A DNA stretch of 64,000 nt from a virus, in the IMG/VR virus record IMGVR_UViG_3300009512_000010, positions 64,001 to 128,000 of that record. The stretch is one strand, 5' to 3'. A model generated the notes under the pieces. The model saw only the letters and a program-made list of their open reading frames with translations. It searched no databases and was not told the origin of the DNA. A program made the translations under genes and the position numbers. Positions 4,484-54,317 of this stretch are shown here, piece after piece. Within the stretch, counting starts at the first letter, position 1. Every line of letters begins with the position of its first letter.

Positions 4484-5251
4484 TTAGAATGAAAAGGACA
4501 AATTCAAGGAAGGTGAATATTGTTCGCTATTCATGTCGTAGTTAAGCTTGCTTTCGATAGAAGCGGCATCACTAAGACCAATTAGATAAGAACCACCAAG
4601 GTTCTGTGTCAGGTCATTTTCGTCACCGTTCAAGTAACCTGTGATACCAAGCAATGTTGTTGAGCCTTCGTATGCCCATACATCGTTTGCGTATGTCATT
4701 ACGGTATCAACAGATTGGTCCTTGATCTCAAGACCAAAACCCACACCAACAGCAATATCTTTAGTGTTGATGTTATAGTCGGCAGAAGTAGATGCTGTAA
4801 TACCACCAAGTTCTAGTTGGTAAGCACCTTGCAAACTTGCAATGTCTGTTACGTCTGTACCGATATCAGTAAATGCGAGACCTACACTTACACCAGACCA
4901 AGCGGCTTGCAATGATGTTCCCATAGACGGATCTGCAAGTGGGCTATTTGCGGCAGAAGCTTCACCTTCTACGAAAAGGTTTCCTTGTTTACCAAAAGAC
5001 AGACTAGCTGAACCAACTGCGTGGCCTACGTTCCAGTCGCCTACTGCTAGTTTGTCGTCTGCACCAGCAACTACTTCGACGCCACCAAAGGCATCGCCTA
5101 CGGCAGTCACATCAAAAGCGATTTTCTTTGTGGCGATATACTTACCCGCAGTGTTTTCTGTGATGTCAATGTCAGCATCTACGGCGATATCCGCACCAAA
5201 TGCACTTGTTGACATAGCAATCATTGCTAGAGAAGAGATTAATAGTTTCAT
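4484..5251 (-). CDS. Outer-membrane beta-barrel, porin-like protein
   Basis: Signal peptide ending SAFG/A; alternating amphipathic strands; C-terminal LNLSFSF with terminal Phe (BAM signal). Confidence 0.7.
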   Translation of the reverse strand: MKLLISSLAMIAMSTSAFGADIAVDADIDITENTAGKYIATKKIAFDVTAVGDAFGGVEVVAGADDKLAVGDWNVGHAVGSASLSFGKQGNLFVEGEASAANSPLADPSMGTSLQAAWSGVSVGLAFTDIGTDVTDIASLQGAYQLELGGITASTSADYNINTKDIAVGVGFGLEIKDQSVDTVMTYANDVWAYEGSTTLLGITGYLNGDENDLTQNLGGSYLIGLSDAASIESKLNYDMNSEQYSPSLNLSFSF

Positions 5252-5280
5252 GTTCTTGTTATTCCTTGTTAATTGTTAGT

Positions 5281-5592
5281 ACGACTTTTCTGTTGCTAGG
5301 TAAGTCGCCAACCCCCTTAAATTAGGCCGCTAGGCGCAATTCAGAAGGAGCAAAGTTATTGTTTGCATTTAGTAGTTTTGACCAATTACGCAGTCACCCG
5401 ATAAACTCCACGTTCACTTTCACACCTGTCGATCCTAGTTCGCCCCCATCAAAAGCACATCATCTTCAACCCTCGTGAGGTCTGTGTCTCTGCAAAAACA
5501 CCTTATTGCAGTAAGGCGTAATGTGCTTGTGGTGGAGGCGTTGGGTACTGCCCCCAAGTCCAGAATGTGTCCACGTTGCTTCAACGTCTACA
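5281..5592 (-). ncRNA. ssrA: Circularly permuted two-piece tmRNA
   Basis: Minus strand order: acceptor piece ending GACTTGGGGGCAGTACCCAACGCCTCCACCA (CCA end at 5530), intervening segment, 5' piece starting GGGGGCGAACTAGGATCGAC (5447), tag frame 5366..5322 ANNNFAPSELRLAA*. Confidence 0.92.
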
Positions 5593-5598
5593 AGTTAT

Positions 5599-5627
5599 AT
5601 AGTATCACAGACCACCTAAAGTGTCAA
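5599..5627 (-). promoter_or_regulatory. Sigma70-type promoter of tmRNA
   Basis: TTGACA-17 nt-TACTAT. Confidence 0.8.
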
Positions 5628-5662
5628 CAGTCTGCGACATTGATTTAATGTTGTGATATATA

Positions 5663-6304
5663 TCACACAGGAGCGGCATACGTCTGTTCTAGTTCAACAG
5701 GTTGTGGTTCGTTGTAATCTACTTCGAACCCACCCTTATCAAACTTAGGCGGTGGCGCATTCATCTTCATTAGATGAGACACACCACCATGCAACTGTTC
5801 CATCAAGTTACGAGTGTTAAACTGCAACTCTTCAAGATCTCCATTGTTGTCGATAGTAAAGTCTGCCATCCACTGTTTAAGGCTCATGCTGTCATCGCCT
5901 TCACTAGGCAAATGATCTGAGCGATCAATCCAAATACAGAAGTCATAAACACCTGTATTCTGCATAGCAAAGAACTCACGTTTGTTACGTAGTCCACAGT
6001 AGATATCATACTCAGCAAACATTTGGCGACCTAATCGTGCGGCATCCTTCTTGTTGTATGCACAGATTGCATCATACCATTCAGCACGATGATTGTGTCG
6101 ATCTGCATAACACTCTTCAATATCTTTATAACCATATTTTGGCTTTAACATATCATAGATGAAGTGTTTACAACAAAAGTGACTACTGCTTTCAAATGTA
6201 TAGCCCATATTGTCTCTGAGCATTTCACACACGGTATCTTTACCATGCCTTCCATGCCCAATGATTAGTAGTTTTAGTTTAGGTAGTTCTGGTGCTGTTT
6301 CCAT
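5663..6304 (-). CDS. Deoxynucleoside monophosphate kinase-like P-loop protein
   Basis: N-terminal IIGHGRHGKDT P-loop; ADFTIDNNGDL near the C-terminus. Confidence 0.65.
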   Translation of the reverse strand: METAPELPKLKLLIIGHGRHGKDTVCEMLRDNMGYTFESSSHFCCKHFIYDMLKPKYGYKDIEECYADRHNHRAEWYDAICAYNKKDAARLGRQMFAEYDIYCGLRNKREFFAMQNTGVYDFCIWIDRSDHLPSEGDDSMSLKQWMADFTIDNNGDLEELQFNTRNLMEQLHGGVSHLMKMNAPPPKFDKGGFEVDYNEPQPVELEQTYAAPV

Positions 6305-9421: not shown

Positions 9422-10470
9422 TACTCTTCCTCTATTAACTTATCGAAGTCGATATTACTCTTGTAACCGATAGTGAAGGTCTGTTTGATAAAGTCTTTGA
9501 AGTCTGTCTCTGCCATGATACGTGTCCAGAACTCTTCTTTGAGCGCATCTGCCGCACGTGACTTAGATGTAAGAACTTCACCAGTTTCTGGATTAATACC
9601 CTCATACCAACCAATAGTTGGTTTACGAACAAATCCACCTGCAAGAGCAACCTCTAACAACCCACTATACTTCTCAACTCCACCTTCCCATGATACTGAG
9701 ATAGGGATCTTAGACTTCTCTTTAACAGAACGAGACTTCTCAATATTGATAACAAAGTCATACCCTGTAATATTTACACCAGTCTTAACTTGTCTACGAC
9801 CAAGGATCCAGATATCATTAGCAGAGTAGTAAATACCTGTACCACCAGACACAACTGCTTTAGAGAACATCTCTTGAGTTTGATATGTGTGGTTAACAGC
9901 CAACAATGGGATATCCTTCATAGCCAAGTATGGTGTACACATACGGAACAAACTCTTAAGTTGTTTGGCACGTGTCATATCACCTACAGACTTTTCGGAT
10001 ACTGCGTCATCCTTTTCCTTCTTGGATGCAAGGTTGCCGATAGAATCGATAACAACGACAACATTATCTTTCTTATCCATGCCCTCTAGTTGTGAGATCA
10101 AATCAAACTTGAGTTCTTCGATATCAGTAATAGGTGTGTGTAGTACACGAGATGTGTCGATACCAAACTGTTCGAAGTAACTTTGTGGGGATCCAAACTC
10201 GCTGTCATAAAACAATAGAACAGCATCTTTGTTGGCATCAAGATATGCCCCTGCCATAAGCAAGGCAAACGATGTCTTAAAGTGCTTAGATGGTCCTGCC
10301 AGAACTGTCAATCCCGGAGATAGACCCCCATCCACAGATCCAGACAAAGCAACATTGACCATAGGAACCGATGTTGGAACCATGACCTTGTTGTTGAAGA
10401 AGTCCGATTCAGAAAGCACTTCCGTGGCCTTCAGCTTCGTGTTCTTCTTGAGTTTATCCATTATACTCAT
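9421..10470 (-). CDS. uvsX: RecA-like recombinase UvsX
   Basis: AGPSKHFKT, FYDSEFG, DSIGNLASKKE, SGGTGIYYSA. Confidence 0.95.
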   Translation of the reverse strand: MSIMDKLKKNTKLKATEVLSESDFFNNKVMVPTSVPMVNVALSGSVDGGLSPGLTVLAGPSKHFKTSFALLMAGAYLDANKDAVLLFYDSEFGSPQSYFEQFGIDTSRVLHTPITDIEELKFDLISQLEGMDKKDNVVVVIDSIGNLASKKEKDDAVSEKSVGDMTRAKQLKSLFRMCTPYLAMKDIPLLAVNHTYQTQEMFSKAVVSGGTGIYYSANDIWILGRRQVKTGVNITGYDFVINIEKSRSVKEKSKIPISVSWEGGVEKYSGLLEVALAGGFVRKPTIGWYEGINPETGEVLTSKSRAADALKEEFWTRIMAETDFKDFIKQTFTIGYKSNIDFDKLIEEE

Positions 10471-10895
10471 TTAGTCTTCCTTTCATTGCAAACACGTTCT
10501 CGTAGATCACTCGTAGAGAACCTATGTGTTCGACTGTTATAATATGTTTCGATCCCCAACTGTCGAGCAAGCTCTTTACCAGTAAAGTCTCTATTCTTAT
10601 ATTCGTCACCAAGTATGCGAACATTAATTGGATACATGTTAATTATATCAATCAAATCTGATTCTGTACAGTAGATAATGACCTCATCAACATATTCAAT
10701 AGCTTCAAGTTGTGCTTGTCTTTCTACAATGCTTTGTATAGGACTATTCTTCTCATTACGATCAACAGAGGGATCAATCTGCAAGGCACAGATTAGCCAA
10801 TCACATTGTGACTTAGCCTCACGCAACATCATCACATGACCTGCATGCAATAAATCAAATGTAGAGGCAGTTAGCCCCACACGTTTAGTTGACAT
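10467..10895 (-). CDS. Cytidylyltransferase (TagD/RfaE-like)
   Basis: FDLLHAGH (HxGH) motif; C-terminal FSTS. Confidence 0.85.
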   Translation of the reverse strand: MSTKRVGLTASTFDLLHAGHVMMLREAKSQCDWLICALQIDPSVDRNEKNSPIQSIVERQAQLEAIEYVDEVIIYCTESDLIDIINMYPINVRILGDEYKNRDFTGKELARQLGIETYYNSRTHRFSTSDLRERVCNERKTK

Positions 10896-11862
10896 TATAG
10901 TATTCCTTATACCACCCTACAAACTTAGCAACCCCATCTTTCATAGGTGTAGTCGGATTATACCCCAATTTCTTAAGTTTGTCAATAGACGCCCAAGTGT
11001 CTTTTGCATCTGCTTTGTGCATTGGGACTGGATTACGAATTGCCTTGCGTCCCAAGTTATACTCAATAGCATCAACAAAATCGGTTAGTGGGATACGTTT
11101 ACCATATGCAATGTTAAAGACTTCGTTGTAATGTTCCTCATGATTAGGATGTAATCCCTGAGCGTGTGTGTGCTTCAACGTAATCATGATACCTTGTACA
11201 ACATCATCAATGTAAGTGAAGTCTCTTGACATATCACCGTAGTTATACAAATCAATACGATCCTCATCAATGATCTTGGTGGTGAAATCGAATAGTGCCA
11301 TATCGGGGCGACCCCAAGGACCGTAAACCGTAAAGAACCTAAGTCCTACTGTATTGCGAATTGGACTAGACATAAACTGCGCTTCATTAGCGGCTTTAGT
11401 AAATGAGTATGGATTGAGTGCACGTGGTAGCTTTTCGTATTCATCTTGTGGCATAGGATTACCTGCCATAACCGAAGACGAAGATGCGTACACAATGTTC
11501 TCAATACCTGCTTCCTCACAGGCTGTGATCAAGTTCTGCGAACCTGTCATGTTATTATCAATGTATTGCTGTGGATTATTAAGAGAATGTCTAACCCCAG
11601 CATATGCCGCTAGGTGCATTACGATGTCGGGGTATTCTCCCATGATGAAATCAGTGATACTATCCAGATCTTTGAGATCCATATAGGATGTCTCTACACC
11701 ACGCATTCTTAGATTGTTTGCTCTAGCATTCTTTAGAGAAACATCATAATAGTGGTTGAAGTTATCAAATCCTACAACTTCATGTCCATCGTCTAGTAGC
11801 GAGTTGGCAAGGTGATATCCTATAAACCCTGCCATTCCTGTGATCATTACTTTCATATCCAT
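10885..11862 (-). CDS. NAD-dependent epimerase (UDP-glucuronate 4-epimerase-like)
   Basis: TGMAGFIG, HLAAYAGVR, YASSSSV, YSFTK, LRFFTVYGPWGRPDMA, RDFTYIDD. Confidence 0.9.
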   Translation of the reverse strand: MDMKVMITGMAGFIGYHLANSLLDDGHEVVGFDNFNHYYDVSLKNARANNLRMRGVETSYMDLKDLDSITDFIMGEYPDIVMHLAAYAGVRHSLNNPQQYIDNNMTGSQNLITACEEAGIENIVYASSSSVMAGNPMPQDEYEKLPRALNPYSFTKAANEAQFMSSPIRNTVGLRFFTVYGPWGRPDMALFDFTTKIIDEDRIDLYNYGDMSRDFTYIDDVVQGIMITLKHTHAQGLHPNHEEHYNEVFNIAYGKRIPLTDFVDAIEYNLGRKAIRNPVPMHKADAKDTWASIDKLKKLGYNPTTPMKDGVAKFVGWYKEYYNVN

Positions 11863-11874
11863 CTCCTTTAATGC

Positions 11875-11903
11875 ATTATAGCATATCTAGGAAACGTTGT
11901 AAA
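11875..11903 (-). promoter_or_regulatory. Sigma70-type promoter
   Basis: TTTACA-17-TATAAT upstream of the epimerase. Confidence 0.7.
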
Positions 11904-12732
11904 CCACTTTCTGCTCTTTTTCTCTATCATCCAGTTCGTATTGTGAACGGATCTTGTTATTCTCTTTAATCACTAGATCAAGTATTGACATTGTTCCGCT
12001 ACCAAATGCACTGAATGCATTAGTATCTTTAGGGAAGCAAGCACCACCAAAACCAAAACGACCATCTTCACCAGGAACCACAGTATGGGAAGAATTAATC
12101 CTCTCATCAGCACCAATAGCACTAATAACAGTATCGTAATCAGAACCATTTCCATCAATCAACTCCTTAAATTGGTTGAACCACATAACCTTTGTGGCAA
12201 GAAACGAATTAACCCCATACTTAACAAACGATGCATCTTGTGCAGTCATCTTGTGTACTGGACACGGTTTACATTTACTCGATTCTTTATATAACTTGTG
12301 TAGATCATCGGTTGACTGATCAGATCCACCAAAGATGTGCATAGGCGGATTAACAAAGTCGTGTAGTGCGTTTCGTTCTGTGAGGAACTCAGGATTGTAG
12401 ACCACCCTGTCAAACATACCAGACAACTGTTTAACTATACTTGGAATGACTGTAGACTTAATAATGATAAGTCCGTTTGTTATCAAAGCAAGTTTAGTAA
12501 CCACACTTATAACTGTTGAGGCGTCAATAGATCCGTCTTCACCAAATGGTGTTGGTACGCAAACAAATGATGCATCCGTATCAGGATCCACATCATCAAC
12601 ATCTGTACCTAAATTAGGATCTATTAACTGCAATTTGTTATCCTTGTAGGTAAAGCCATGTTCAACAGCTTTACCCACAAATCCATAACCAACCACTGCA
12701 ATACGCATATTACCCACCACCTTGAAAACCAA
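11887..12732 (-). CDS. UDP-glucose/GDP-mannose dehydrogenase family protein (short form)
   Basis: GYGFVG, VCVPTP, IKSTV, NPEFL, GFGGACFPKD; lacks the C-terminal UDP-binding domain. Confidence 0.85.
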   Translation of the reverse strand: MVFKVVGNMRIAVVGYGFVGKAVEHGFTYKDNKLQLIDPNLGTDVDDVDPDTDASFVCVPTPFGEDGSIDASTVISVVTKLALITNGLIIIKSTVIPSIVKQLSGMFDRVVYNPEFLTERNALHDFVNPPMHIFGGSDQSTDDLHKLYKESSKCKPCPVHKMTAQDASFVKYGVNSFLATKVMWFNQFKELIDGNGSDYDTVISAIGADERINSSHTVVPGEDGRFGFGGACFPKDTNAFSAFGSGTMSILDLVIKENNKIRSQYELDDREKEQKVVYNVS

Positions 12733-12904
12733 CCTTTACTCTATACCACACTTTCTGATGGAAGATCTTGGCCTTTAATTCCTCAATTTCACTTGTCTCA
12801 AAGCCCACTGCACCCATTCTATGGTGTTGCAGTAGAGCTAGAGCCTCATCAATTAGCGCAATATCATTCACGCTTAATTCAAATTTAGTATTGGGTTTAG
12901 CCAT
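12710..12904 (-). CDS. Hypothetical protein
   Basis: 64-aa ORF overlapping both neighbours. Confidence 0.55.
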   Translation of the reverse strand: MAKPNTKFELSVNDIALIDEALALLQHHRMGAVGFETSEIEELKAKIFHQKVWYRVKVGFQGGG

Positions 12905-13241
12905 GCCCTACAGTTTCTCTTTTAATATCTTGATGATTGAATTCTGCCCAATACAATTCAAAGGCAACACCTTCTTCAAGACATTCAAACTGATGATACA
13001 CCCCAGGCTTTACCTTAGTGTACATCCCAGGATCTAGAATAGTCTCGTCAACAAGATCATAATCATTCTGCCAAACACGAATGAGCATACGCCCACTCTC
13101 GACATAGAAACCATTCCATTTGAATTCGTGGAGATGCTTAGAGCATACTCCACCTTTATTCATTTCAATACGATGAAACTCTAAAGCACCATTTGCTTCT
13201 ACAAGTTCCGTATTTCCCCATACTTTTCCAGCTACTGTCAT
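12897..13241 (-). CDS. Cupin-fold protein (sugar isomerase-like)
   Basis: KVWG, CSKHLH, FYVESG, VKPGVYHQF cupin motifs. Confidence 0.75.
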   Translation of the reverse strand: MTVAGKVWGNTELVEANGALEFHRIEMNKGGVCSKHLHEFKWNGFYVESGRMLIRVWQNDYDLVDETILDPGMYTKVKPGVYHQFECLEEGVAFELYWAEFNHQDIKRETVGHG

Positions 13242-14201
13242 TTAATATCCATTCGGTACTAGGACGTAATGTATCATAAGGACAATTCCCAACGAAGCAC
13301 CAAGCCCAACCATCATCTTCAAGAAGTCTTTACCTATTAATGGAAACACTGTCTTGAGTTTTCCCTTACCTGTATATGTAGCCATTGCTAACTCACGTCC
13401 ACATAAGAGACCTACAAACACCCATGTTGTTGACATAGGAATATCATTCAACTCTTTAAAGAAGAATAGAATTGCCCAATAGACTGCATCGATAATAGTA
13501 GCAGAACGTACATAACGTGTGTTGTGCTTCTCAATAACAATCTGTTGGATCTTACCACCACCTTCACGTAGCATGAATGCCAAACCACCAACAAAGACTA
13601 CACTAATCATAATCATCAATGGAACGTCAAGTTGTCTTGGAAGGAACACTGCGATATTAGCTACATCATGAGACAACCAAGTAAACCATAGGAAACCTGT
13701 TGTAACCCATTGACCAACTCGCCAATACGCTTTGTGCTCTTCTTTGACTGGTTTAGCTTCATCCAGAAGCCGACTTACGATCATCCAGATTGCATAAGCG
13801 GCAACTGCAGCAACAGCATAACCCATCATAGATTTCATTAGCATTTTCTCTAACACGAATGTAGAAGCAAATGCCGATAGAACCAAGAATGATGTGGATA
13901 CTGGAACCCCCACTCTGGTCAATAGTAAAAGTACTGCTGGTGCCATTGCATGATACCACTGTACTTCTTGAAACGGAATCTTATTAAGTCTTCCATAACT
14001 AATATCACCACCATTCGTATACCAACCATACCAAAGAGTATAGAGTAGTACACCAGAAGCGGCTAACCACATAGTCTTCCAACTAAATCTTTCGTTATTA
14101 CTTGCAATCCATGTACCCAAAGTCTGTACCGAATCGTTTGCTATTACTGAGTAAGCGGCGAATATAAATCCTACCACCATCCATATCGTCAATGCATCCA
14201 T
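13242..14201 (-). CDS. Multi-pass membrane protein, PiT-like phosphate/anion permease
   Basis: Many TM helices; duplicated PiT-like motifs IANDSVQ/SHDVAN and PVSTS/PMSTT; start refined to 14201. Confidence 0.6.
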   Translation of the reverse strand: MDALTIWMVVGFIFAAYSVIANDSVQTLGTWIASNNERFSWKTMWLAASGVLLYTLWYGWYTNGGDISYGRLNKIPFQEVQWYHAMAPAVLLLLTRVGVPVSTSFLVLSAFASTFVLEKMLMKSMMGYAVAAVAAYAIWMIVSRLLDEAKPVKEEHKAYWRVGQWVTTGFLWFTWLSHDVANIAVFLPRQLDVPLMIMISVVFVGGLAFMLREGGGKIQQIVIEKHNTRYVRSATIIDAVYWAILFFFKELNDIPMSTTWVFVGLLCGRELAMATYTGKGKLKTVFPLIGKDFLKMMVGLGASLGIVLMIHYVLVPNGY

Positions 14202-14202
14202 T

Positions 14203-14874
14203 TTATATCCTCTTTCTTCTCCACTTGTTAGCATCCTTTGGTGTATTTATTTCTATACCATTCCAGTCAACAGGATGACAACCAATTGTTGTGCCCATAT
14301 GCATCCATCTAAGTTGCTCCAAACCGTGTTCAATCTCCATGGCACAAGGTGTCGTACCATAGAATTGCAATGCTTCTCTACTATATCCGTATACACCTAA
14401 GTGGTGCTCATCTAATAGTAAAGTACGAGTAAACGATTTGGCTGTATTGGTTTTAACATCTCTGTCAACCTTAACACAATTAGGATCTCGACTTGGATTC
14501 TTAGCACACACTGTGGTCACGTCATATGTATTCAATCCTTTGAGGATCATATCGATCACATCCACAGTAACGTCTGGCATATCTCCTTGAACATTAATAA
14601 AGCGATTATACTTATGAAAGAACCCATTGTCAATAGCCCCTGCACATCTTTCTGTGCCATTATTATAAGGGGTTTCATCTATCCAACAATACCTAGATCC
14701 AAACAGTTCAAAGATCCGCATATCATCTGTGAGCACAAACGTGTCTAGTCCAGACTTTGTGCACTCATCAAACACACGTTTGATCATAGGCTTTCCATCA
14801 AGATCTACTAATGGCTTACCTTCGTATCTAGTAGATCCCCATCTAGCGGGAATAAGAATAGCGGTAGATATCAT
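14203..14874 (-). CDS. kdsB: CMP-Kdo synthetase
   Basis: IPARWGSTRYEGKPL, GTERC, INVQGD, HLGVYGY, LEQLRW. Confidence 0.9.
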   Translation of the reverse strand: MISTAILIPARWGSTRYEGKPLVDLDGKPMIKRVFDECTKSGLDTFVLTDDMRIFELFGSRYCWIDETPYNNGTERCAGAIDNGFFHKYNRFINVQGDMPDVTVDVIDMILKGLNTYDVTTVCAKNPSRDPNCVKVDRDVKTNTAKSFTRTLLLDEHHLGVYGYSREALQFYGTTPCAMEIEHGLEQLRWMHMGTTIGCHPVDWNGIEINTPKDANKWRRKRI

Positions 14875-45969: not shown

Positions 45970-46735
45970 CGCTCGTTATTTCCTCATAATTATAAGTCTT
46001 AGTAAATCCGTAGTCAGAATCATACATTGGTATTATTGTGGGGGTTGTCGTTGTCGTAAGTACCTTAGTACCCTTTTCGAGTTCGTATTCCATGATAGAC
46101 TTAGTAATGACTTCGCCATCATCGATTGCACCTGTGAAGCTAGTCTTAACTTCAAAGTCCATTACATATTGTACTGACTGTCTTTGTTCTTGTTGACCCT
46201 CACCCTCATTGACAAACGCCACTGATTGTAGTGTAATTGGAACATCTTCTTTGATATCTGGATAGTCTTTGTACGGTCTCATAGTCACAGTGTATTGTGG
46301 TGCAAAGGTTGGTATGATCTGTTCTACAATTTGTAGAGCATCATCCTGATTATTTGCATAGATCCCAAGAGAAAATGTTACAATGTAGGGAACTGATTGT
46401 TTTACTTTGGCACGTTTACTGTTGTCGTTTACTGTCGCTTGTTGAAGTCTAGCGTTAGTCTTAGACAACTGTCGTGTCGCATCATATGCCATTGAAGTCA
46501 TCTCAAAGGTCATGCGTGGCAACTTTATAGCAACTGAATCGTCAACACCAAATTCGCCCACCTGTTGTAACCTAAGAAGAAACTTAGATCTAGGAGAGTA
46601 TGCCAAAGGAACACGAATTGTGCTTAACACTTTGCCGTTCTTGTCCGTTCTCATTACATGGATCTTTGTAAAGAGCGAACCGAATATAGCTACTGTTTTA
46701 CGTAGTCTCTCGTGATAAAAGTAATCATTAAACAT
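45959..46735 (-). CDS. 15: Tail sheath stabilizer/completion protein gp15
   Basis: YFYHE, FGSLF, VPLAYSP, LPRMTFE, QIVEQIIP. Confidence 0.92.
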   Translation of the reverse strand: MFNDYFYHERLRKTVAIFGSLFTKIHVMRTDKNGKVLSTIRVPLAYSPRSKFLLRLQQVGEFGVDDSVAIKLPRMTFEMTSMAYDATRQLSKTNARLQQATVNDNSKRAKVKQSVPYIVTFSLGIYANNQDDALQIVEQIIPTFAPQYTVTMRPYKDYPDIKEDVPITLQSVAFVNEGEGQQEQRQSVQYVMDFEVKTSFTGAIDDGEVITKSIMEYELEKGTKVLTTTTTPTIIPMYDSDYGFTKTYNYEEITSDDG

Positions 46736-47547
46736 TAGCTTGAAAGTCCTGTGCTTTTACTGATTTCGCCAAATGGATTGCCTTCACTAAAGTCTAGGAA
46801 GTCCTCTATCTCAGTAGCAAATTCGAAGTTCTGTTGATCTACAGTATCTTTCTGCGTAGAGCTAACAATCTTAGCAGTAGCACCTGAGTTTTGCCCAGTG
46901 AGATACTTGCCAGTCGATGGTAGTGCGAATGATCCCAAGTTGTTTGCCGAACCAACATGAATAAGCGATAAGATTTCGCTACTATCATTGTATGCCGCAA
47001 CTTCGGCTGTCAAAACACCACCGTCTGATGCGCTGTCTTGGTTAACATATTCGCCAACAAGAAACGGTTGGAATAGCTGTGGATCTGATATTAGAATAGA
47101 TGGTGGGGAAGTATAGAAATCTCCACTGTCCACAATTGTTATTGAAGTAAGTTTACTAGTAGCACTGTCTAGATTTGGGTATCCAACTGCAATAAAGTCA
47201 GTCGCATTCTTACTTGGACCTAAAATCGTAACAGCAGGTACAGATTGATATCCTTGACCACTATCCGTTAGAGTAACCGAGTTAACTCTTCCGTTTAGAA
47301 CTGTTGCAGTTGCAGTTGCCGTAGTGCCAACACTAGATGCAATTGTAATAGTAGGAGTAGATCCATCCTCATAGTAGCTTCCGCCACTATCGATGTTAAT
47401 TTGGTTAAGACTGCCACTATTCAAAATAGCGATTAGTCTTGCTGGTTTCTTGGCTGTTGTGGGTGCCGAAAAGGTTATGGAAGGAACTGTTGTGTATAGA
47501 TCACCACTGTCAGTAAGAGTAATGCTTGTGATACCTTGTAATGACAT
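46735..47547 (-). CDS. Repeat-containing virion protein carrying a gp14-type C-terminus
   Basis: Four ~37-aa repeats (TLTDSG-x-x-Y...P-x-ITI); ends LDFSEGNPFGE. Confidence 0.7.
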   Translation of the reverse strand: MSLQGITSITLTDSGDLYTTVPSITFSAPTTAKKPARLIAILNSGSLNQINIDSGGSYYEDGSTPTITIASSVGTTATATATVLNGRVNSVTLTDSGQGYQSVPAVTILGPSKNATDFIAVGYPNLDSATSKLTSITIVDSGDFYTSPPSILISDPQLFQPFLVGEYVNQDSASDGGVLTAEVAAYNDSSEILSLIHVGSANNLGSFALPSTGKYLTGQNSGATAKIVSSTQKDTVDQQNFEFATEIEDFLDFSEGNPFGEISKSTGLSS

Positions 47548-48140
47548 TATGAAATACTCGCTGTTGCTGTTGCGGTCTTACCACGATTAACTTTAATGTC
47601 ATATCTATAGGCATTATCAATCTCAATTTGATCGATATTCGCATTACCTGTATCAATATCTTCGTCATTGTATTCAAACAATTCACAACGGATCTTATAT
47701 GTTGGTAGGTTGTTTAGCTGATAGAAAGGCTGTTCGTGCTCAACGTGCACGATCTGAAACAGTTTGCCTGCAAATGGGGTGTAAATAAGATCGCCTTCTG
47801 CTGGCCTATCTGTCTTAATCTCGTTATCAAACTTACGTACTGTTTGGTTCCAACGCCTTTTGGCTACGACAAGTGTTACACTGTCTCTGATCTCTACACC
47901 AAACTTACTGAATAAGTCGCCTTCACCGTCAAACCCATCATTGTTCTCCACATACATCTCAAGTCTGTAACTAGAGTTGAATGAGGATACTGGATCTTCT
48001 TTAAACACATCATCTACGTTCACTAGATCACGTGGCATGTAATACATGTCCTGACCATAGATCCGCAATGCTTCGATTGTTAGATCTTCGTAAAGAAGTT
48101 GTTCTGACTTATGACCATCTGAAAAGTATAAATTGCGCAT
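47547..48140 (-). CDS. 14: Neck protein gp14 (N-terminal portion)
   Basis: EQLLYEDL..EALRIYGQDMYYMPR, GDLFSKFG, RPAEGDLIY, CELFEY. Confidence 0.9.
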   Translation of the reverse strand: MRNLYFSDGHKSEQLLYEDLTIEALRIYGQDMYYMPRDLVNVDDVFKEDPVSSFNSSYRLEMYVENNDGFDGEGDLFSKFGVEIRDSVTLVVAKRRWNQTVRKFDNEIKTDRPAEGDLIYTPFAGKLFQIVHVEHEQPFYQLNNLPTYKIRCELFEYNDEDIDTGNANIDQIEIDNAYRYDIKVNRGKTATATASIS

Positions 48141-48141
48141 A

Positions 48142-48894
48142 TTAACCTACAAAGAATTCTACAGGGAGTTCATGCTCTAGTCTCATATCCTCTTCGAGTT
48201 TCAATACTTCTGCGTTTGCGGCCTCTAGTATAGCCAAGCCATTCATCGTCACACCACCAGGCAATTGCATACCTTCAAACTTACTAAGGTTTTGCCCCCA
48301 TTGTTGCTTGACCAATGCAGTAAAGTATGCCTTAACAAACCTGTCGTTATACACTGATGTGTTTGCTACAGGATCTACAAGTTGAGTGCCTTCTACAATA
48401 ATGTATTGGCCTTCTTTAATATCTTGTGTTTCAAACTCGCCATGAATGTATAGCTTACTTTCGTATTGAGAGTAATTAACCTGTGGCATTCCGTTTAGTG
48501 TTTGGTCAATCATAGCAATGTGCTGTTGCATCATTGTATAATATGCCATGTCTCCCATGAACTTACCCATGACTGCAAGATCGTTCAACCTAAGCTGATA
48601 GCCCAAAGAGAACATTCCGCTAGAAGAAGCCCCACCATTGATTGGAAGGACTCTTTTCACAAATAGATAGTCGGATGGGATAGGGATATATTTGTTAGTG
48701 ACATCATCTGCCGTAATAAGATACTTTAGATAGACTGTCTTAGTCGCATCAGAATGGTACTCTTGAAAGTATTCAAGAGCTTCGTCCAATCTGTCTTCTA
48801 CTTGATCCTCATCAACATTAATTTCGAGAACAGGCTCACCCAATCTTCGCTTTGCATAGTCAATTAATGTCGATCTTGAATTCGGTTTTGCCAT
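48142..48894 (-). CDS. 13: Neck protein gp13
   Basis: RRLGEPVLEINVDEDQ, KQQWGQNLSKFEGMQLPGGVTMNG. Confidence 0.94.
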   Translation of the reverse strand: MAKPNSRSTLIDYAKRRLGEPVLEINVDEDQVEDRLDEALEYFQEYHSDATKTVYLKYLITADDVTNKYIPIPSDYLFVKRVLPINGGASSSGMFSLGYQLRLNDLAVMGKFMGDMAYYTMMQQHIAMIDQTLNGMPQVNYSQYESKLYIHGEFETQDIKEGQYIIVEGTQLVDPVANTSVYNDRFVKAYFTALVKQQWGQNLSKFEGMQLPGGVTMNGLAILEAANAEVLKLEEDMRLEHELPVEFFVG

Positions 48895-48925
48895 CTAACT
48901 CGTCCCATGTGTAATCCGTTACTTC

Positions 48926-48933
48926 TATTTATA
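48926..48933 (-). promoter_or_regulatory. T4 late promoter upstream of gp13
   Basis: TATAAATA. Confidence 0.75.
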
Positions 48934-50862
48934 CTAATTTATATCCCCAGGGTAGCGTTGTGTCCACATTGTAAAGCTATATTTCGTTCCCGAAACAAGT
49001 TCTGTACACTCATGACCGTGTGTGACCATGCCCGGAAACAGAATCATCTTACCACAAGGCACATCATCGTTGTTAACACCCTGTCTTGGGTAGATCAAAG
49101 ACGCACCTTTATAGTCATCATTGAGCTTAACGGATCCTGTAACAAGAGAGGCATCATTGTGCAAAGGCAAACTCTTTTGAGTGTCCACCGAATATCGCAT
49201 AACGAATGCATCACGCATACCATACATTTCAATAGGGTGCCAAAGCTTCTCTACGATTGGTACGATATGTTCTTTCCAATGGGTTTCTAGCTCATTCCAC
49301 AATCCTAGTTCTTTGACACGGATCTCATATGCTGGAAACTTATCTTCTGGCATAGGTGCCCACTTGCCGTGGTTATCACCCATTTCAATCAAACGATCAC
49401 ACTGGCTTTGTGTCATGAAGTCCACAACCATCATGTCCTTTTCAAGCATGTCAACCTTACCGTGATGGGGGATGAACATCGGAGACTGTGGAGTTGTTCC
49501 TAAAGCGGTTTTAGGTTTAGGCAATGCCTTTGTGTATTTGGTGTGCACTTGGCTCCATAGGTTATCAAACTTTACTTTAGCCTCAAACCCACCGTTACCA
49601 TGATATAGACAAGGAACAGTATTCGTGATTGGGTTCCATAGCTCATTACCTACGTCTACTTCTGGCTCGTGCGTTTGGAAGATATATTGTTCATAGTCCA
49701 ACCCTACAGAGAATTTAGTAGTATCGTTTAGCCAGACACGTTGCATGTATAGCTGATCGTCATCATCATCGTTAAGTCGTTCTCCAAAGAAGTCTTTTAA
49801 TGCACCAACCCTACCAATGTATTGTCCACTGTTGAGGTATTTGTAATGAAAGAGGTTGGGTTCTGGATGTAGGCTTTGCATGCTCTCGTCAGGCCAACAG
49901 CTTGCTTCTGCCCCGAATAGGATCTCTACAGAAGCGTCCATATACCGTTTAACGATTTCTTGTAGATTATTTGTAAAGAATACGTCATATGCATCTGTGA
50001 ATAGAAGAATATCGTTTTCGGGCAAGGTGTCGAGATAGTCTCGCACCAAGTTAACTTTATGTCCACCACCAGGGCCTTGCATGTCTGTACCAGCCCAATC
50101 GACATTAGTGCCCAAGTTCTTAACATCAAATCCCATTAGTGCCGCACTGTCATTCAATGCTACACACTTAGATCTATCCGTACCAACCGTAACCGCATGA
50201 ACATTGAAGTTTTGGAACCAATCGTCATGGCTTTGTGGCTCAATGTCAGATCCAAGAGCTTCTCTACTAATCTGTGTCGCAATCTCTACTTTGAGTGCTT
50301 GTACGTTATGTGTCTTTACCTTCTGAGCCAAGACCTCATCTACAGGGATGATCTTTCTGTGGAAACCACTATTAATAAGATCATGCGCCATTTTAACAGT
50401 TAGCATATATGCATGACCATTGTATGGATAGCAAGGCTTAACTAGGTGTTGATTGCCACCTTCTGTGACACCAGTTTCGTTATTCTCGTTGTGACCCAAA
50501 TATAGTAGATCGATATTATGCTCATCCATCCACTCGTGGTATTCGTTCTCTTTCCACTTAAATCTGTCGATCTTAACATCATCTTCGAAGATGATTGTAG
50601 TCTCGTTTAGTTCAACTACTTTCTGCCACGCCTGATAGTGTGATAGGAAGCAACCAACCTCACCCTTTGTAATTCTACGGTTCTTGAATGGATCACGCCA
50701 TTTGTGATTAACACCAAATTCATTGTCTACCATACGTTGGTGATCAATGTCATGACCATCAATAGCAAATACGAATTGATAATCTTCCAACCAACCACAT
50801 TCACCCATAAAGGATCTTTTTCTGTCAGTTCTTCGATTTAGATTAATAACTAGCTTGTGCAT
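48934..50862 (-). CDS. Tri-domain protein: GT25 (COLGALT-like) + PLOD-type glycosyltransferase + 2OG-Fe(II) lysyl-hydroxylase-like
   Basis: GT25: INLNRRTDRK, KGEVGCFLSH, FEDD. PLOD-GT: GGGHKV, FTDAYDV, AEASCWPD, YLNSG, DDDDDQLY, HGNG. Hydroxylase: FVMRY...LHND...THGHE...GTKY. Confidence 0.85.
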   Translation of the reverse strand: MHKLVINLNRRTDRKRSFMGECGWLEDYQFVFAIDGHDIDHQRMVDNEFGVNHKWRDPFKNRRITKGEVGCFLSHYQAWQKVVELNETTIIFEDDVKIDRFKWKENEYHEWMDEHNIDLLYLGHNENNETGVTEGGNQHLVKPCYPYNGHAYMLTVKMAHDLINSGFHRKIIPVDEVLAQKVKTHNVQALKVEIATQISREALGSDIEPQSHDDWFQNFNVHAVTVGTDRSKCVALNDSAALMGFDVKNLGTNVDWAGTDMQGPGGGHKVNLVRDYLDTLPENDILLFTDAYDVFFTNNLQEIVKRYMDASVEILFGAEASCWPDESMQSLHPEPNLFHYKYLNSGQYIGRVGALKDFFGERLNDDDDDQLYMQRVWLNDTTKFSVGLDYEQYIFQTHEPEVDVGNELWNPITNTVPCLYHGNGGFEAKVKFDNLWSQVHTKYTKALPKPKTALGTTPQSPMFIPHHGKVDMLEKDMMVVDFMTQSQCDRLIEMGDNHGKWAPMPEDKFPAYEIRVKELGLWNELETHWKEHIVPIVEKLWHPIEMYGMRDAFVMRYSVDTQKSLPLHNDASLVTGSVKLNDDYKGASLIYPRQGVNNDDVPCGKMILFPGMVTHGHECTELVSGTKYSFTMWTQRYPGDIN

Positions 50863-50887
50863 AATGATTCCTTTTCAGTGTTATATA

Positions 50888-51448
50888 TTAGTCTCTGTAG
50901 AGATACAAATCAACAGGGACGCAGATCCGTAGTTCGGAGTAGTAAGGGTTGACGTGGTGATAAGCGAAACTTGGGAAGATCAAGAAGTCTCCTGTCTCAG
51001 GTTGATGATGATGTCTGTTAAACATTGGATTGAAATATTCGTCATACCCCCGATTGGCATTAGATCTAGGATCGTGTAGCACCAAGTCGCCGCCCGAATT
51101 TTGATCTTCTGCTAGTATATAGAACACGCCAGATAAGTGTGCTCCCGAATGATTGTGAATAGTCATTGAATAGTCTTTACCGTGACCAGTGATCCAACCC
51201 TTTAGCTTGTAGTTGTCCCAATCCTCAATAGAGCAATCAATAGTACTCTTTAGGTAGTCATTAAAAGCACTCTTAACAGTACTATTAAAGGCACTCATAA
51301 CAGCACTCTTATCATCCAATATGTTATATCCACCCAAATCGCTAGGTGGTTCGTTTAGATTGTATGTGCTAAATATATGTTCCACTAAACCAGTGGTGTC
51401 GAACTTTCCTTGACCCATCTGTGTAGGCCATAGATTATGGATATCCAT
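50888..51448 (-). CDS. 2OG-Fe(II) oxygenase
   Basis: HNHSGAHLSGVFY, GGDLVLHDPR, LIFPSFAYHHV, R-I. Confidence 0.85.
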   Translation of the reverse strand: MDIHNLWPTQMGQGKFDTTGLVEHIFSTYNLNEPPSDLGGYNILDDKSAVMSAFNSTVKSAFNDYLKSTIDCSIEDWDNYKLKGWITGHGKDYSMTIHNHSGAHLSGVFYILAEDQNSGGDLVLHDPRSNANRGYDEYFNPMFNRHHHQPETGDFLIFPSFAYHHVNPYYSELRICVPVDLYLYRD

Positions 51449-51499
51449 CTCACTTCTTTCATCATGTTAATATACATCTATATATACTAGTAATAACAC

Positions 51500-51528
51500 T
51501 TGACTCTATGTTTCGGGTATGCTAGAAA
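51500..51528 (+). promoter_or_regulatory. Sigma70-type promoter heading the plus-strand rSAM operon
   Basis: TTGACT-17-TAGAAA with TG extended -10. Confidence 0.55.
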
Positions 51529-51540
51529 TAGGTATAACAA

Positions 51541-51843
51541 ATGAAAAGAGAGAATCACATGACTATGATGAACACAGTACTTGACCAAATCAATCGTATG
51601 GACGCTTCAGAAATCAACCGTGTAGTTGAAGCGATCAAATCTCGCCGCAACTCACTGTCTTATGCCACAAACGCTACCTTGCGTGTTGGCGATATTGTCT
51701 CTTGGATGCGCCGTGATGGAAGCACTGTAACAGGATCTGTTAAGAAAGTTAATCAGAAAACAGTTATAGTAAATGAACGTAATAACCCCAATGTTTGGAA
51801 AGTATCTTCAAGCATGCTTACTCCACTGTCTATAGGTGGATAA
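51541..51843 (+). CDS. Small hypothetical protein (SH3/KOW-like beta C-terminus)
   Basis: LRVGDIVSW...VTGSVKKVNQKTVIV...WKV; start probably 51559. Confidence 0.65.
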   Translation: MKRENHMTMMNTVLDQINRMDASEINRVVEAIKSRRNSLSYATNATLRVGDIVSWMRRDGSTVTGSVKKVNQKTVIVNERNNPNVWKVSSSMLTPLSIGG

Positions 51844-52307
51844 TGACATTTGACGAATTCTTCGACTTCTTGATGAGTGAAGAATGTTTTAATGACTGTT
51901 CGGTCTCCTTTATTAACAATAGAGGAGAACAACAGTACATAGAGCATGACGATTTATTTGCATATAGGGGCAAGGTGGTTGATCTTTGGTTTAGTGGAGA
52001 TGATACGATTAAGGTAGAGGGATATGAACGTATCCAACCTTATGATGGGACTATCCATATATTCTATGCTCCTACAAATGCTCCTTCATTTCCTGTACAT
52101 ACAGATCCTATAGATATCTATATCGAATGCCTTGATGGGCGTAAGATAATGGAAATTGACGACCAATACGTGATGATAGAAAAGGGAACGAAGATCTTTA
52201 TTCCCGCAGACACACCACACGTTGCGCTCAACTCAGAGAAAGCATTGACATTAAGCTATGGCATTAACGACACAAACACATTCGGTAATCTACGTAAAGA
52301 CTACTGA
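51843..52307 (+). CDS. JmjC/cupin-like Fe(II) oxygenase
   Basis: SFPVHTDP (HxD), LDGRK, FIPADTPHVA; TAATG-coupled start at 51843. Confidence 0.7.
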   Translation: MTFDEFFDFLMSEECFNDCSVSFINNRGEQQYIEHDDLFAYRGKVVDLWFSGDDTIKVEGYERIQPYDGTIHIFYAPTNAPSFPVHTDPIDIYIECLDGRKIMEIDDQYVMIEKGTKIFIPADTPHVALNSEKALTLSYGINDTNTFGNLRKDY

Positions 52308-53289
52308 AACTTGTAATCTTAATTGCAGTCACTGTTTTACTTCTGGTATGAATGGGCGTAAGATCTATTTTGATCACGTGAAGACCGCAAATTGGTGTAA
52401 CGAACTCGACACTGGCTCTAACCAGATCCATTTAGAGTACCATGGTGGTGAGCCTATGCTTGCGCCCATGGCACACCTACGAGAATTCCATGACATCACT
52501 AAAGCTCAATGGGGTGATCGTGCAACTCATGGTATCACAACAAATCTTGTGTTTAAGCTTACCGAAGAGAAACTTGCATTCTTTAGTGAAATCATTACAG
52601 GTGGTAACATCGGCACCTCATGGGATCCTAATATTCGTTTTACTAACGAACATCAAAGGAAGATGTGGGAAAATAATGTTAAGCAGTTGACAGGACTTGG
52701 GCATAGTGTCAAGTGCTTTATCTCTGTATCTAAGGATGTTATTAAACTACAACCGTTGGAGATTGCTGATTATATGGAGTCTCTTGGTGTTGCTGAGATC
52801 TCTTATGAACGACTTACCCATGATGGTAATGCCACAATCAATACGGACATCTTTCCTCATAACTCTGAACTAGATGCTTGGTGGATGCTGATGCATGAAC
52901 AAACTCAAGATCACCCTGTAGAAAACGGCTTTATGGGATCCATCTACGACAAGTTCAACAAAGGGCAGTTCCAGATCGGCACATTCTGTCGTGATTGCGA
53001 ACAAAAGATCCACACTATTAATGCAGACGGTACTGTCGCAGGCTGTCCTAACACCGCACCAACCATGCATTATGGTCATATAGATACACCAGCAAAGGAA
53101 GTAAGATTAAGTCCTAAGCGTATGGAGATCATATCTTGTGAACAGCATGAACGTGATGAACGGTGTTACAAATGTCCAGTCTTTATGTATTGCCATTCTG
53201 ACTGTCATCAGTTACAATGGATGGATGATGTGTGCCCTGCGCCTAAAACATTGATGATGAAGTTAGCGAAAGAGAAGAAATGGATTTAA
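52258..53289 (+). CDS. Radical SAM/SPASM protein
   Basis: CNLNCSHC, HGGEP; SPASM-like C...G-x4-CP...CYKC-x5-C-x3-C...C. Confidence 0.92.
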   Translation: MALTTQTHSVIYVKTTETCNLNCSHCFTSGMNGRKIYFDHVKTANWCNELDTGSNQIHLEYHGGEPMLAPMAHLREFHDITKAQWGDRATHGITTNLVFKLTEEKLAFFSEIITGGNIGTSWDPNIRFTNEHQRKMWENNVKQLTGLGHSVKCFISVSKDVIKLQPLEIADYMESLGVAEISYERLTHDGNATINTDIFPHNSELDAWWMLMHEQTQDHPVENGFMGSIYDKFNKGQFQIGTFCRDCEQKIHTINADGTVAGCPNTAPTMHYGHIDTPAKEVRLSPKRMEIISCEQHERDERCYKCPVFMYCHSDCHQLQWMDDVCPAPKTLMMKLAKEKKWI

Positions 53290-54317
53290 TCGTAAAGCCA
53301 ACCGAAGCGTGTAACTTCAAGTGTACATTTTGCTCGTCAACAGATATCGATCCCAATGAGGTTGGTCTGTTAGACTTGAGCTATATCTATAGGTTCTTAG
53401 AAAGGTTTCCAGAGACTAACACAATTATTGTTAATGGTGGTGACCCTCTTATGGTCAAGCCACAGTATTATCAAGATCTAATTGACCACCTTAATGAGCA
53501 TGATTACCCAGCAAGCATTAGCTTTACGTCCAACCTTTGGCCTTTCCTAATGAAACCTAAGAAGTGGTTACCCATCTTTCAGAACGAACGATTTGGTTGT
53601 GCCACATCATTTCAGTATGGTGGCGGTAGACTAAAAGGCGATTATTCAGAGTTCACAGAGGCAGACTTTTGGATGGTGTCTAATGCCATGTTGAAGCATA
53701 CAGGTGAACGTCCAGATTTTATCGCAGTTATTACAGAAGAGAATGAGCATCTCGCCATTAAGAATGTAGAACTAGCAAAAGAGATGGGCGTCGAGTGTAA
53801 GTTGAACTATGCTATGGCTTCTGGTGTACAGGGATCTACGTATCAATTAAGCAAGATCTACGAAACATATCTTGAGATTTATGACCGTGGTCTAGCCGAT
53901 CATGAGTTCAACACTAAGCAAATGATGAAACGTCTTGGGGGATCTTCTACATCATGCCCACAGAATAGAGCGTGTGATGAAGGTATCCGTGCATTTAACC
54001 CAGGAGGTGATTACTACTCTTGTGGTTCATTTGCAGATGATATGGATTATCCTATCGACTTCGAAACTGAGATGGCAGGAAAGTTGCAAACACCACTGCA
54101 ACACGACCCCAACATTCAGACAATGAAGATGGCTTGTTACACATGCCCTATGTTTGAAATCTGCAATGGTTGTAAGAAAACTGTGCGTGATATGAAACGT
54201 GAAGGTACTGTTGAAGGTCATTGTAGGCAGATGAAAGCATTGGCACCTCGTATCCTTGCTACCAATAATATGAGTCCTGATGGAGTGACGCCCTATGTCG
54301 ATGAATCTATCAATTAA
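53280..54317 (+). CDS. Radical SAM/SPASM protein
   Basis: KPTEACNFKCTFC, NGGDP; C...GDYYSC...CYTC-x5-CNGC...C. Confidence 0.92.
   Translation: MDLIVKPTEACNFKCTFCSSTDIDPNEVGLLDLSYIYRFLERFPETNTIIVNGGDPLMVKPQYYQDLIDHLNEHDYPASISFTSNLWPFLMKPKKWLPIFQNERFGCATSFQYGGGRLKGDYSEFTEADFWMVSNAMLKHTGERPDFIAVITEENEHLAIKNVELAKEMGVECKLNYAMASGVQGSTYQLSKIYETYLEIYDRGLADHEFNTKQMMKRLGGSSTSCPQNRACDEGIRAFNPGGDYYSCGSFADDMDYPIDFETEMAGKLQTPLQHDPNIQTMKMACYTCPMFEICNGCKKTVRDMKREGTVEGHCRQMKALAPRILATNNMSPDGVTPYVDESIN

Follow-up and report, generated by a model that had tools for sequence, protein, structure and literature searches.

In a marine T4-like phage, a single gene probably specifies a one-chain, cytoplasmic enzyme that modifies collagen lysines and has the phage's own collagen-like fibres as its target. 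The gene lies in a window of 64,000 nucleotides (positions 64,001 to 128,000 of the IMG/VR virus record IMGVR_UViG_3300009512_000010), where it occupies positions 48934-50862 of the minus strand as an open reading frame (ORF) of 642 amino acids (aa) that is uninterrupted by stops. The protein (P0001) combines, from the N- to the C-terminus, a GT25 domain, a PLOD-type glycosyltransferase (GT) domain and a lysyl hydroxylase domain. Its sequence likeness to collagen enzymes is far above chance. An earlier note, made from motifs in the DNA and its translation, had assigned the three domains to COLGALT, the PLOD GT and the PLOD hydroxylase. These assignments are borne out by sequence, conserved catalytic residues and predicted fold, and all of the motifs could be located in the protein. 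Pfam recognised GT_PLOD (PF25342, aa 220-444, 1.3e-45) and Glyco_transf_25 (PF01755, 1.2e-23), while phrog_61 matched the full length of the protein (3.4e-107). A scan of the enzyme against NCBIfam returned no matching model, and megablast of its locus against the phage collection found no near relative.

We compared the 642-aa protein and its single domains with all PDB sequences using phmmer, and measured residue conservation on an alignment of 30 homologues with 48-84% identity. The first domain (aa 1-197; 50272-50862, minus strand) is a COLGALT-type GT25 catalytic domain and a putative hydroxylysine galactosyltransferase. It scored 84.4 bits against PF01755 (cut-off 24, aa 2-110), and the catalytic GT2 domain of human COLGALT1 aligned to aa 5-194 at 5e-19. 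The motif WRDPFKNRRITKGEVGCFLSH lies at aa 55-75. Within the domain, GEVGC (aa 67-71) and FEDD (aa 92-95) align with the uridine-positioning helix and the Mn motif of COLGALT1, respectively. In the human enzyme the helix residues are Gly408, Gly411 and Cys412, and the Glu-Asp-Asp Mn2+ motif (E435/D436/D437) forms an unusual site whose mutation abolishes activity (PMC12003778). The phage residues E93/D94/D95 and C71 align with E435/D436/D437 and C412 and are invariant among the homologues. Pfam and phmmer detected no N-terminal structural GT1 domain of the COLGALT1 type, and the phage protein begins with its catalytic domain. The C-terminal lid-loop residue Asp570 of COLGALT1 could not be placed in the alignment either. 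Lacking the GT1 domain and with the lid-loop Asp unplaced, the phage domain is a minimal form and no full COLGALT orthologue.

The central domain (aa 220-446; 49525-50205, minus strand) is of the PLOD/LH3 type and a putative glucosyltransferase. It reached 156 bits against PF25342 (cut-off 27), and phmmer matched aa 224-430 to the GT domain of LH3 at 1.3e-23 and found mimivirus R699 at 2.5e-21. Six of the motifs fall here, namely GGGHKV (aa 265-270), FTDAYDV (aa 288-294), AEASCWPD (aa 318-325), LNSG (aa 343-346), DDDDDQLY (aa 365-372) and HGNG (aa 421-424). Residues D290 and D293 (the DxxD motif), D368, D369, H421, N423 and W256 are invariant, and Y292 is nearly so. In pairwise alignments D290/D293, H421, W256, Y292 and D368/D369 correspond to D112/D115, H253, W75, Y114 and D190/D191 of LH3, and W323 in CWPD corresponds to its gating W145. 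In LH3, D112/D115/H253 form the Mn site, W75 and Y114 stack on UDP, W145 is the gate and D190/D191 belong to a poly-Asp repeat (PMC6082870). The gating Trp and the poly-Asp repeat are unconserved in other glycosyltransferases or other LH enzymes (PMC6082870). The phage protein carries both, as the Trp of CWPD and a run of five aspartates (DDDDD). The accessory (AC) domain that follows the GT domain in LH1-3 and R699 is absent, and a 24-residue linker (aa 447-470) of low predicted local distance difference test score (pLDDT) stands in its place.

The third domain (aa 471-642; 48937-49452, minus strand) is assigned as a PLOD-type Fe(II)/2-oxoglutarate (2OG) lysyl hydroxylase. In a domain-only search, aa 476-631 matched the hydroxylase domain of LH3 (residues 542-710) at 2.2e-08, followed by the hydroxylase of mimivirus L230 (2e-4) and PiuC (0.011). 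No Pfam oxygenase model scored above threshold on this domain. Its HND...H motif consists of H568, D570 and H617, which are invariant together with Y557 and K627. These five residues align with H667, D669, H719, Y656 and R729 of LH3, of which the first four form the Fe and 2OG site (PMC6082870). The Tyr of the 2OG pocket is thus kept as Y557, while R729 is replaced by the invariant K627 and C691 by the invariant L589. Since K627 retains a basic residue at this position, binding of 2OG appears plausible. Across all three domains, the invariant phage residues map onto residues that mutagenesis has found to be required in the human enzymes (PMC12003778, PMC6082870).

An AlphaFold2 model built on the homologue alignment had a mean pLDDT of 86.9 and a predicted template modelling (TM) score of 0.79, and its sole low-confidence part was the second interdomain linker. 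The architecture is one of catalytic domains only, concatenated, with short linkers replacing the GT1 domain of COLGALT1 and the accessory domain of LH3. Foldseek searches against the PDB placed collagen enzymes as the best structural neighbours of each domain, and bacterial GT25 galactosyltransferases clearly lower. The N-terminal domain superposed on COLGALT1, its root-mean-square deviation (rmsd) being 3.3-4.0 over 220-242 columns. The central domain matched the human GGT domain 6wfv (TM 0.83, rmsd 2.4) and R699 (rmsd 1.9-2.0). The C-terminal domain was closest to the mimivirus L230 entries 6ax6 and 9nev (TM 0.73, rmsd 2.4-2.7), with prolyl hydroxylases lower. The earlier note had regarded a better alignment to lipopolysaccharide (LPS) or glycan enzymes as the outcome that would speak against its assignments; collagen enzymes ranked higher in every domain with both phmmer and Foldseek. 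In our own reading of the N-terminal sequence a signal peptide is not apparent, and the protein is probably cytoplasmic.

Comparison with the known systems places the phage protein close to human LH3/PLOD3 (PDB 6fxk, 6fxr, 8zgc), with matches to both the GT and the hydroxylase domains and a TM of 0.83 for the GT fold. The two share the Mn site of DxxD plus His, the UDP-stacking Trp and Tyr, the gating Trp, the poly-Asp run, the HxD...H Fe site and the Tyr of the 2OG pocket. Unlike LH3, which is located in the lumen of the endoplasmic reticulum, the phage protein is probably cytoplasmic, has a fused N-terminal GT25 domain, has Lys (K627) for the 2OG Arg and Leu for Cys691, and carries the low-confidence linker instead of the AC domain. 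Human COLGALT1/GLT25D1 (PDB 9evj, 9u7h, 8zgc chain U) has in common with it the EDD motif, the Gly-x-x-Gly-Cys helix and a conserved PVDE, but has in addition the non-catalytic N-terminal GT1 domain. Without the COLGALT GT1 and PLOD accessory domains, and with an altered 2OG pocket, the phage protein belongs fully to neither parent family.

Each phage domain also has a counterpart, by sequence and by fold (rmsd 1.9-2.7), among the Acanthamoeba polyphaga mimivirus proteins L230, R699 and R655. Of these, L230 is a collagen hydroxylase/glucosyltransferase, R699 a galactosylhydroxylysyl glucosyltransferase and R655 a putative GT25 enzyme. Both viral systems pair their enzymes with virus-encoded collagen-like fibre proteins. 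However, the mimivirus activities are spread over three proteins in a giant virus of eukaryotes, whereas the phage would combine them in one chain of 642 aa in the bacterial cytoplasm. The statement of the earlier note that mimiviruses have separate enzymes of these kinds holds in that there are three proteins, but not fully, as L230 is itself a bifunctional hydroxylase-glycosyltransferase. All three phage domains scored higher against the human than against the mimivirus enzymes (PLOD GT, 86 versus 79 bits; GT25, 72 versus 31; hydroxylase, 37 versus 24). To our knowledge, mimivirus has the only other virus-encoded system for collagen lysine modification.

We searched the 159,934-bp genome for Gly-X-Y repeats in a six-frame scan. 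The earlier note had seen no Gly-X-Y collagen gene in the window, and this is correct, but two such genes lie 0.7-3.5 kb past its right end (genome 128739-131516). They are located on the minus strand at genome positions 128739-129812 (357 aa, 39 triplets) and 129816-131516 (566 aa, 29 and 11 triplets). The Pfam Collagen model recognises both, PHROG assigns both to tail-fibre families, and their neighbours are virion structural and fibre genes. In tblastn searches of phage records, the non-collagen C-terminus of the 357-aa protein resembled tail-fibre and virion proteins of Campylobacter, Pseudomonas and other phages. We dropped tblastn with this protein as a test of co-occurrence, since the low-complexity filter masked the repeats and only the C-terminal fibre domain matched. 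Together the two genes contain 79 triplets, with Lys at position Y in 42, Lys at position X in none and a single Pro. Lysyl hydroxylases target Lys at Y in Gly-X-Lys triplets (PMC2877668). Directly downstream of the collagen genes (genome 126786-128738, minus strand) we observed two tandem 128-aa paralogues, both ending in ...LCHSSCHTSCHTSRGRR, and beyond them a 423-aa ORF that bears a CxxxCxxC motif; the sole match was phrog_35144 (unknown function). These genes could represent a pair of Cys-rich fibre accessory proteins and a maturation enzyme.

The association of the enzyme with collagen-like genes extends to other phages. In all four isolates that encode the enzyme (S-PRM1, S-CAM9, S-8S55 and CRP-6), a Gly-X-Lys-rich tail-fibre gene is found 0.4-2.3 kb upstream of the enzyme gene. 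The fibre genes of the Synechococcus phages S-PRM1, S-CAM9 and S-8S55 contain 55-59 triplets with Lys at Y in 22-24, and that of Roseobacter phage CRP-6 contains 99 triplets with 26 Lys at Y. A tail-assembly chaperone gene alone separates fibre and enzyme genes in CRP-6. Repeats of the Gly-X-Lys type also occurred on the enzyme strand in 37 of 80 IMG/VR loci (21 of 31 when loci shorter than 15 kb are set aside), usually 2-6 kb upstream. Four of the five large, myovirus-type, enzyme-positive IMG/VR records had collagen repeats elsewhere on the contig. Five enzyme-negative Kyanoviridae genomes served as a matched negative control, as the large control records held no T4-like member. None of the five had a collagen match, including Phage C48C1, the nearest named relative by gp15. 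Collagen matches were thus present in eight of nine enzyme-positive genomes (the four isolates and the five large IMG/VR records, with this genome included) and in none of five enzyme-negative ones (Fisher's exact p 0.003 by hand calculation; the genomes are not fully independent). The pairing was found in two virion types, T4-like myoviruses in which gp13 and gp14 adjoin the enzyme gene, and phages of about 50 kb with a tape-measure gene, such as CRP-6. This recurrence argues against simple hitch-hiking.

The repeats that accompany the enzyme differ in composition from other viral collagens. Counting every distinct run once, we obtained 81 enzyme-linked runs (3988 triplets) and, as a control, 245 unselected IMG/VR collagen runs (7392 triplets). 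Enzyme-linked runs had 1333 Lys at Y and none at X, and every one of them had Lys at Y. The control runs had 496 Lys at Y and 123 at X, and 150 runs were without Lys at Y. Lys therefore accounts for 33% of Y and none of X in enzyme-linked runs, compared with 6.7% of Y and 1.7% of X in the control, and the per-run fraction of Lys at Y differed accordingly (Mann-Whitney p = 2.5e-33). The absence of Lys from X and its roughly five-fold enrichment at Y are well beyond the control. Thr is the second most common Y residue of the enzyme-linked repeats (26%). The tri-domain enzyme was absent from all 71 control viral records with collagen.

The Y-position Lys of Gly-X-Lys is the established lysyl hydroxylase site. 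We propose that the enzyme would act on fibre chains before or during their trimerisation in the bacterial cytoplasm. The C-terminal Fe(II)/2OG domain would first convert Y-position Lys of Gly-X-Lys to 5-hydroxylysine. The N-terminal GT25 domain would then put a hexose on the new hydroxyl, which by analogy may be galactose from UDP-Gal, and the central LH3-type GT would attach another hexose to the first, which by the same analogy may be glucose from UDP-Glc. The substrates in this genome are likely the two proteins of the tail-fibre cluster encoded at 128739-129812 and 129816-131516. In T4, wac (fibritin) occupies the position immediately upstream of gene 13. Since a collagen gene adjoins the enzyme in this position in some loci, the modified fibre could be a neck or whisker fibre rather than a tail fibre. 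Plausible benefits would be stabilisation or hydration of a triple helix without hydroxyproline, shielding from proteases and receptor recognition; given that these collagens are devoid of Pro as well as hydroxyproline, their helix may gain stability or hydration from glycosylated hydroxylysine. The analysis establishes the domain identities, the conserved and intact active sites, the predicted folds and a tight co-occurrence with Lys-at-Y collagens, while the catalysis, the identities and order of the sugars, the modified virion fibre and the benefit to the phage are inferred. We give about even chances to the full and more general proposal that phages of at least two virion types decorate proline-free Gly-X-Lys virion fibres with a hydroxylysine-linked disaccharide, through a minimal, one-polypeptide pathway of the metazoan type.

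Several observations weigh against collagen-lysine modification by this enzyme. In this genome about 14 kb separates the collagen genes from the enzyme gene, and no collagen match was seen in one of the large enzyme-positive records, which is 71% complete. Many of the enzyme-linked loci are closely related, so that their counts are not independent events, and the control collagens were drawn arbitrarily from IMG/VR, with no matching for habitat. The triple helix also gains electrostatic stability from a Y-position Lys followed by Gly-Glu or Gly-Asp, and some of the Lys enrichment could be due to this, with no modification involved. The hydroxylase is the weakest of the domain matches: its score against LH3 is about 37 bits, Pfam yields no hit, and two of the three LH3 residues of the 2OG pocket are changed (R729 to K627 and C691 to L589). 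The function of every family member is a prediction. Finally, mimivirus L230 transfers glucose directly onto hydroxylysine (Luther et al. 2011), and an order of galactose followed by glucose can thus not be assumed.

The last of these points also favours a variant of the proposal, in which the enzyme modifies collagen-like fibres by non-animal chemistry, with single or different sugars, with one of the GT domains being structural only, or with Thr or Ser as the target. We consider this variant unlikely, though it is the strongest of the alternatives. It would fit the abundance of Thr at Y, the specificity for the donor sugar is not readable from sequence, and human COLGALT1 itself has a non-catalytic GT domain (PMC12003778). 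Against a purely structural GT domain, both GT domains of the phage protein keep their metal- and UDP-binding residues invariant. Moreover, the N-terminal domain retains the unusual EDD motif of COLGALT1, and the central domain has the gating Trp and poly-Asp repeat that other glycosyltransferases and LH enzymes do not conserve (PMC6082870).

A second alternative would make the protein an auxiliary metabolic or superinfection-exclusion enzyme which remodels host LPS or another host glycan, with the oxygenase acting on a small molecule or sugar. Glycosyltransferases of marine myophages are commonly interpreted in this way. Its homologues are named 'GR25 family glycosyltransferase involved in LPS biosynthesis' in the source databases, the title of the Pfam GT25 family refers to LPS biosynthesis, the phage has other LPS-type nucleotide-sugar genes, and the pelagimyophage literature reads phage glycosyltransferases as modifiers of the host O-chain (PMC7029224). 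However, the GT25 domain scored 72 bits against COLGALT1 and only 23 bits (5.8e-4) against a bacterial GT25 beta-1,4-galactosyltransferase, and the structural ranking agrees (Foldseek E-values of 4e-15 and 4e-08). Its fusion partners are an LH3-type GT and a lysyl hydroxylase, and no role in LPS is known for either. The gene is situated in fibre and neck modules and tracks Gly-X-Lys collagen genes, and the enzyme is nearly absent from bacteria, being found on four contigs of metagenome-assembled genomes (MAGs) among 185,579 species. We rejected a role in host LPS as very improbable on the similarity to collagen enzymes, the domain fusion and the gene context. Least credible of all is that the co-occurrence with collagen is a by-product of shared ancestry or cassettes and the true substrate another phage or host protein with exposed lysines, which would suit the close kinship of many loci and the 14-kb distance in this genome but not the pairing in two unrelated virion types, the varied length and architecture of the fibre genes (357 to about 1830 aa) or the lack of X-position Lys from all 81 distinct runs.

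The modification of collagen fibres by an enzyme of this kind would be new for phages. Hydroxylation of collagen Lys with subsequent Gal-Glc glycosylation counts as an animal pathway, to which the giant mimiviruses are the sole viral exception. Prokaryotic and phage collagens have been reviewed as essentially unmodified, and those of phages as short (PMC8968730), and we found no description of a bacteriophage lysyl hydroxylase or hydroxylysine glycosyltransferase in full-text searches of the literature. The family is labelled '2OG-Fe(II) oxygenase' in phrog_61 and elsewhere 'GR25 family glycosyltransferase involved in LPS biosynthesis' or 'hypothetical protein'; these annotations name one domain at most and make no link to collagen fibres. 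The kind of chemistry is known and the protein family is already in databases; what would be new is the minimal one-chain pathway in bacteriophages. If correct, this would be the first report of hydroxylysine glycosylation in the bacterial and phage world. It would add a post-translational modification of virions in abundant marine phages, present on 447 IMG/VR contigs and in hundreds of metagenome clusters, and would explain how phage collagen fibres free of hydroxyproline might gain stability or be diversified for host recognition. It would also re-annotate 'LPS glycosyltransferase' and '2OG oxygenase' genes in cyanophage and pelagiphage-like genomes, and offer a compact enzyme of the bacterial cytoplasm for the production of hydroxylated and glycosylated recombinant collagen. 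As each phage domain is nearer to the animal than to the mimivirus enzymes, the family would then bear on the origin of PLOD and COLGALT. The isolated phages with the cassette (S-PRM1, S-CAM9, the S-8S5x group and CRP-6) make the proposal directly testable.

The enzyme family is widespread in marine viral sequences. It comprises 990 protein clusters at E <= 1e-5 in metagenomes, at least 120 of which are full length, and 447 contigs in IMG/VR encode a relative. In prokaryotes it was found only on the four MAG contigs among 185,579 species genomes. We also observed metagenome proteins of 1437-2881 aa (P0122-P0126) that combine the PLOD GT with a GT10 fucosyltransferase, usually with GT25 and in some cases with other GT domains. 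Their composition suggests larger multi-glycosyltransferase assemblies from the same modules.

We next consider the genes around the enzyme. It had been noted before that the gene sits directly upstream of neck genes, and these can now be identified as a gp13-like head-tail adaptor (48142-48894, minus strand; phrog_211, 4e-38), directly downstream of the enzyme gene, and a gp14-like neck protein (47547-48140, minus strand; PF11649, 6.7e-35; phrog_460, 5.9e-72). Of 82 related loci, 43 retain the order of enzyme, gp13 and gp14, among them loci whose enzyme identity is as low as 47%. A copy of the T4-type late-promoter motif TATAAATA is located at 48926-48933 (minus strand), between the stop codon of the enzyme gene and the start of gp13. 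The window contains 11 exact matches to TATAAATA, all on the minus strand, compared with 4.6 expected by chance, and this restriction to one strand fits the layout of a late structural operon. No exact T4-type late promoter was found upstream of the enzyme gene, and the sole nearby copy serves gp13. Between the gp14-like and gp15-like genes, a 270-aa ORF (46735-47547, minus strand) resembles the phrog_460 'head closure' profile in its C-terminal part and also matches a repeat of giant baseplate, fibre and virion structural proteins. The gp14 equivalent appears, from these profile matches, to be split or extended here.

Adjacent to the enzyme gene on its upstream side lies a gene for a 186-aa 2OG-Fe(II) oxygenase (50888-51448, minus strand; PF13759, 8.1e-15). 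Of 82 related loci, 20 have it directly upstream of their enzyme gene, and these are for the most part close relatives. The scanned region 48700-51700, including the gap between the two genes, contained no terminator-like site, and the oxygenase is possibly co-transcribed with the enzyme gene. We did not retain it as a conserved partner, since the neighbours in cyanophages belong to PF13640, a different family. In the cyanophage cassettes, two PF13640 (2OG-FeII_Oxy_3) oxygenases are encoded between the collagen tail-fibre gene and the tri-domain enzyme, at 4839-6004 of the S-CAM9 locus (L218) and with the same layout in S-8S55 (L219) and S-PRM1 (L002). The PF13640 family includes prolyl 4-hydroxylase-like enzymes. 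The collagens of these cassettes have many Gly-Pro-X triplets, whereas those of the present genome are proline-free and the PF13759 oxygenase takes that position. This may hint at prolyl hydroxylation of phage collagens where Pro occurs. Divergent from the enzyme operon (51795-54317, plus strand) are genes for a cupin/JmjC-like 170-aa ORF and two overlapping radical S-adenosylmethionine (SAM) ORFs of 343 and 345 aa, the first of which has an additional weak SPASM match. Homologues of each of these genes recur in 16-19 of 82 related loci.

The genome contains neither psbA nor a gene for ribosomal protein S21. A CsgG (curli secretion) homologue is present at 2337-2978 (minus strand, 8e-51). With its CsgG, rfaE- and UDP-glucose-dehydrogenase-like and radical SAM genes, the phage resembles pelagimyophages (PMC7029224) more closely than cyanophages, and an identification as cyanophage is not supported, given these genes and the lack of psbA. 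Part of this set belongs to a cluster of nucleotide-sugar genes at 10467-14874 of the window (minus strand). The cluster encodes an RfaE-domain-II-like nucleotidyltransferase (10467-10895), a short-chain dehydrogenase/reductase (SDR) epimerase/dehydratase (10885-11862), a UDP-glucose 6-dehydrogenase-like ORF (11887-12732) and a KdsB-like cytidylyltransferase (14203-14874). The SDR protein scored equally as GalE and as heptose epimerase, both below the cut-off, and one may speculate that it supplies UDP-Gal for the GT25 domain.

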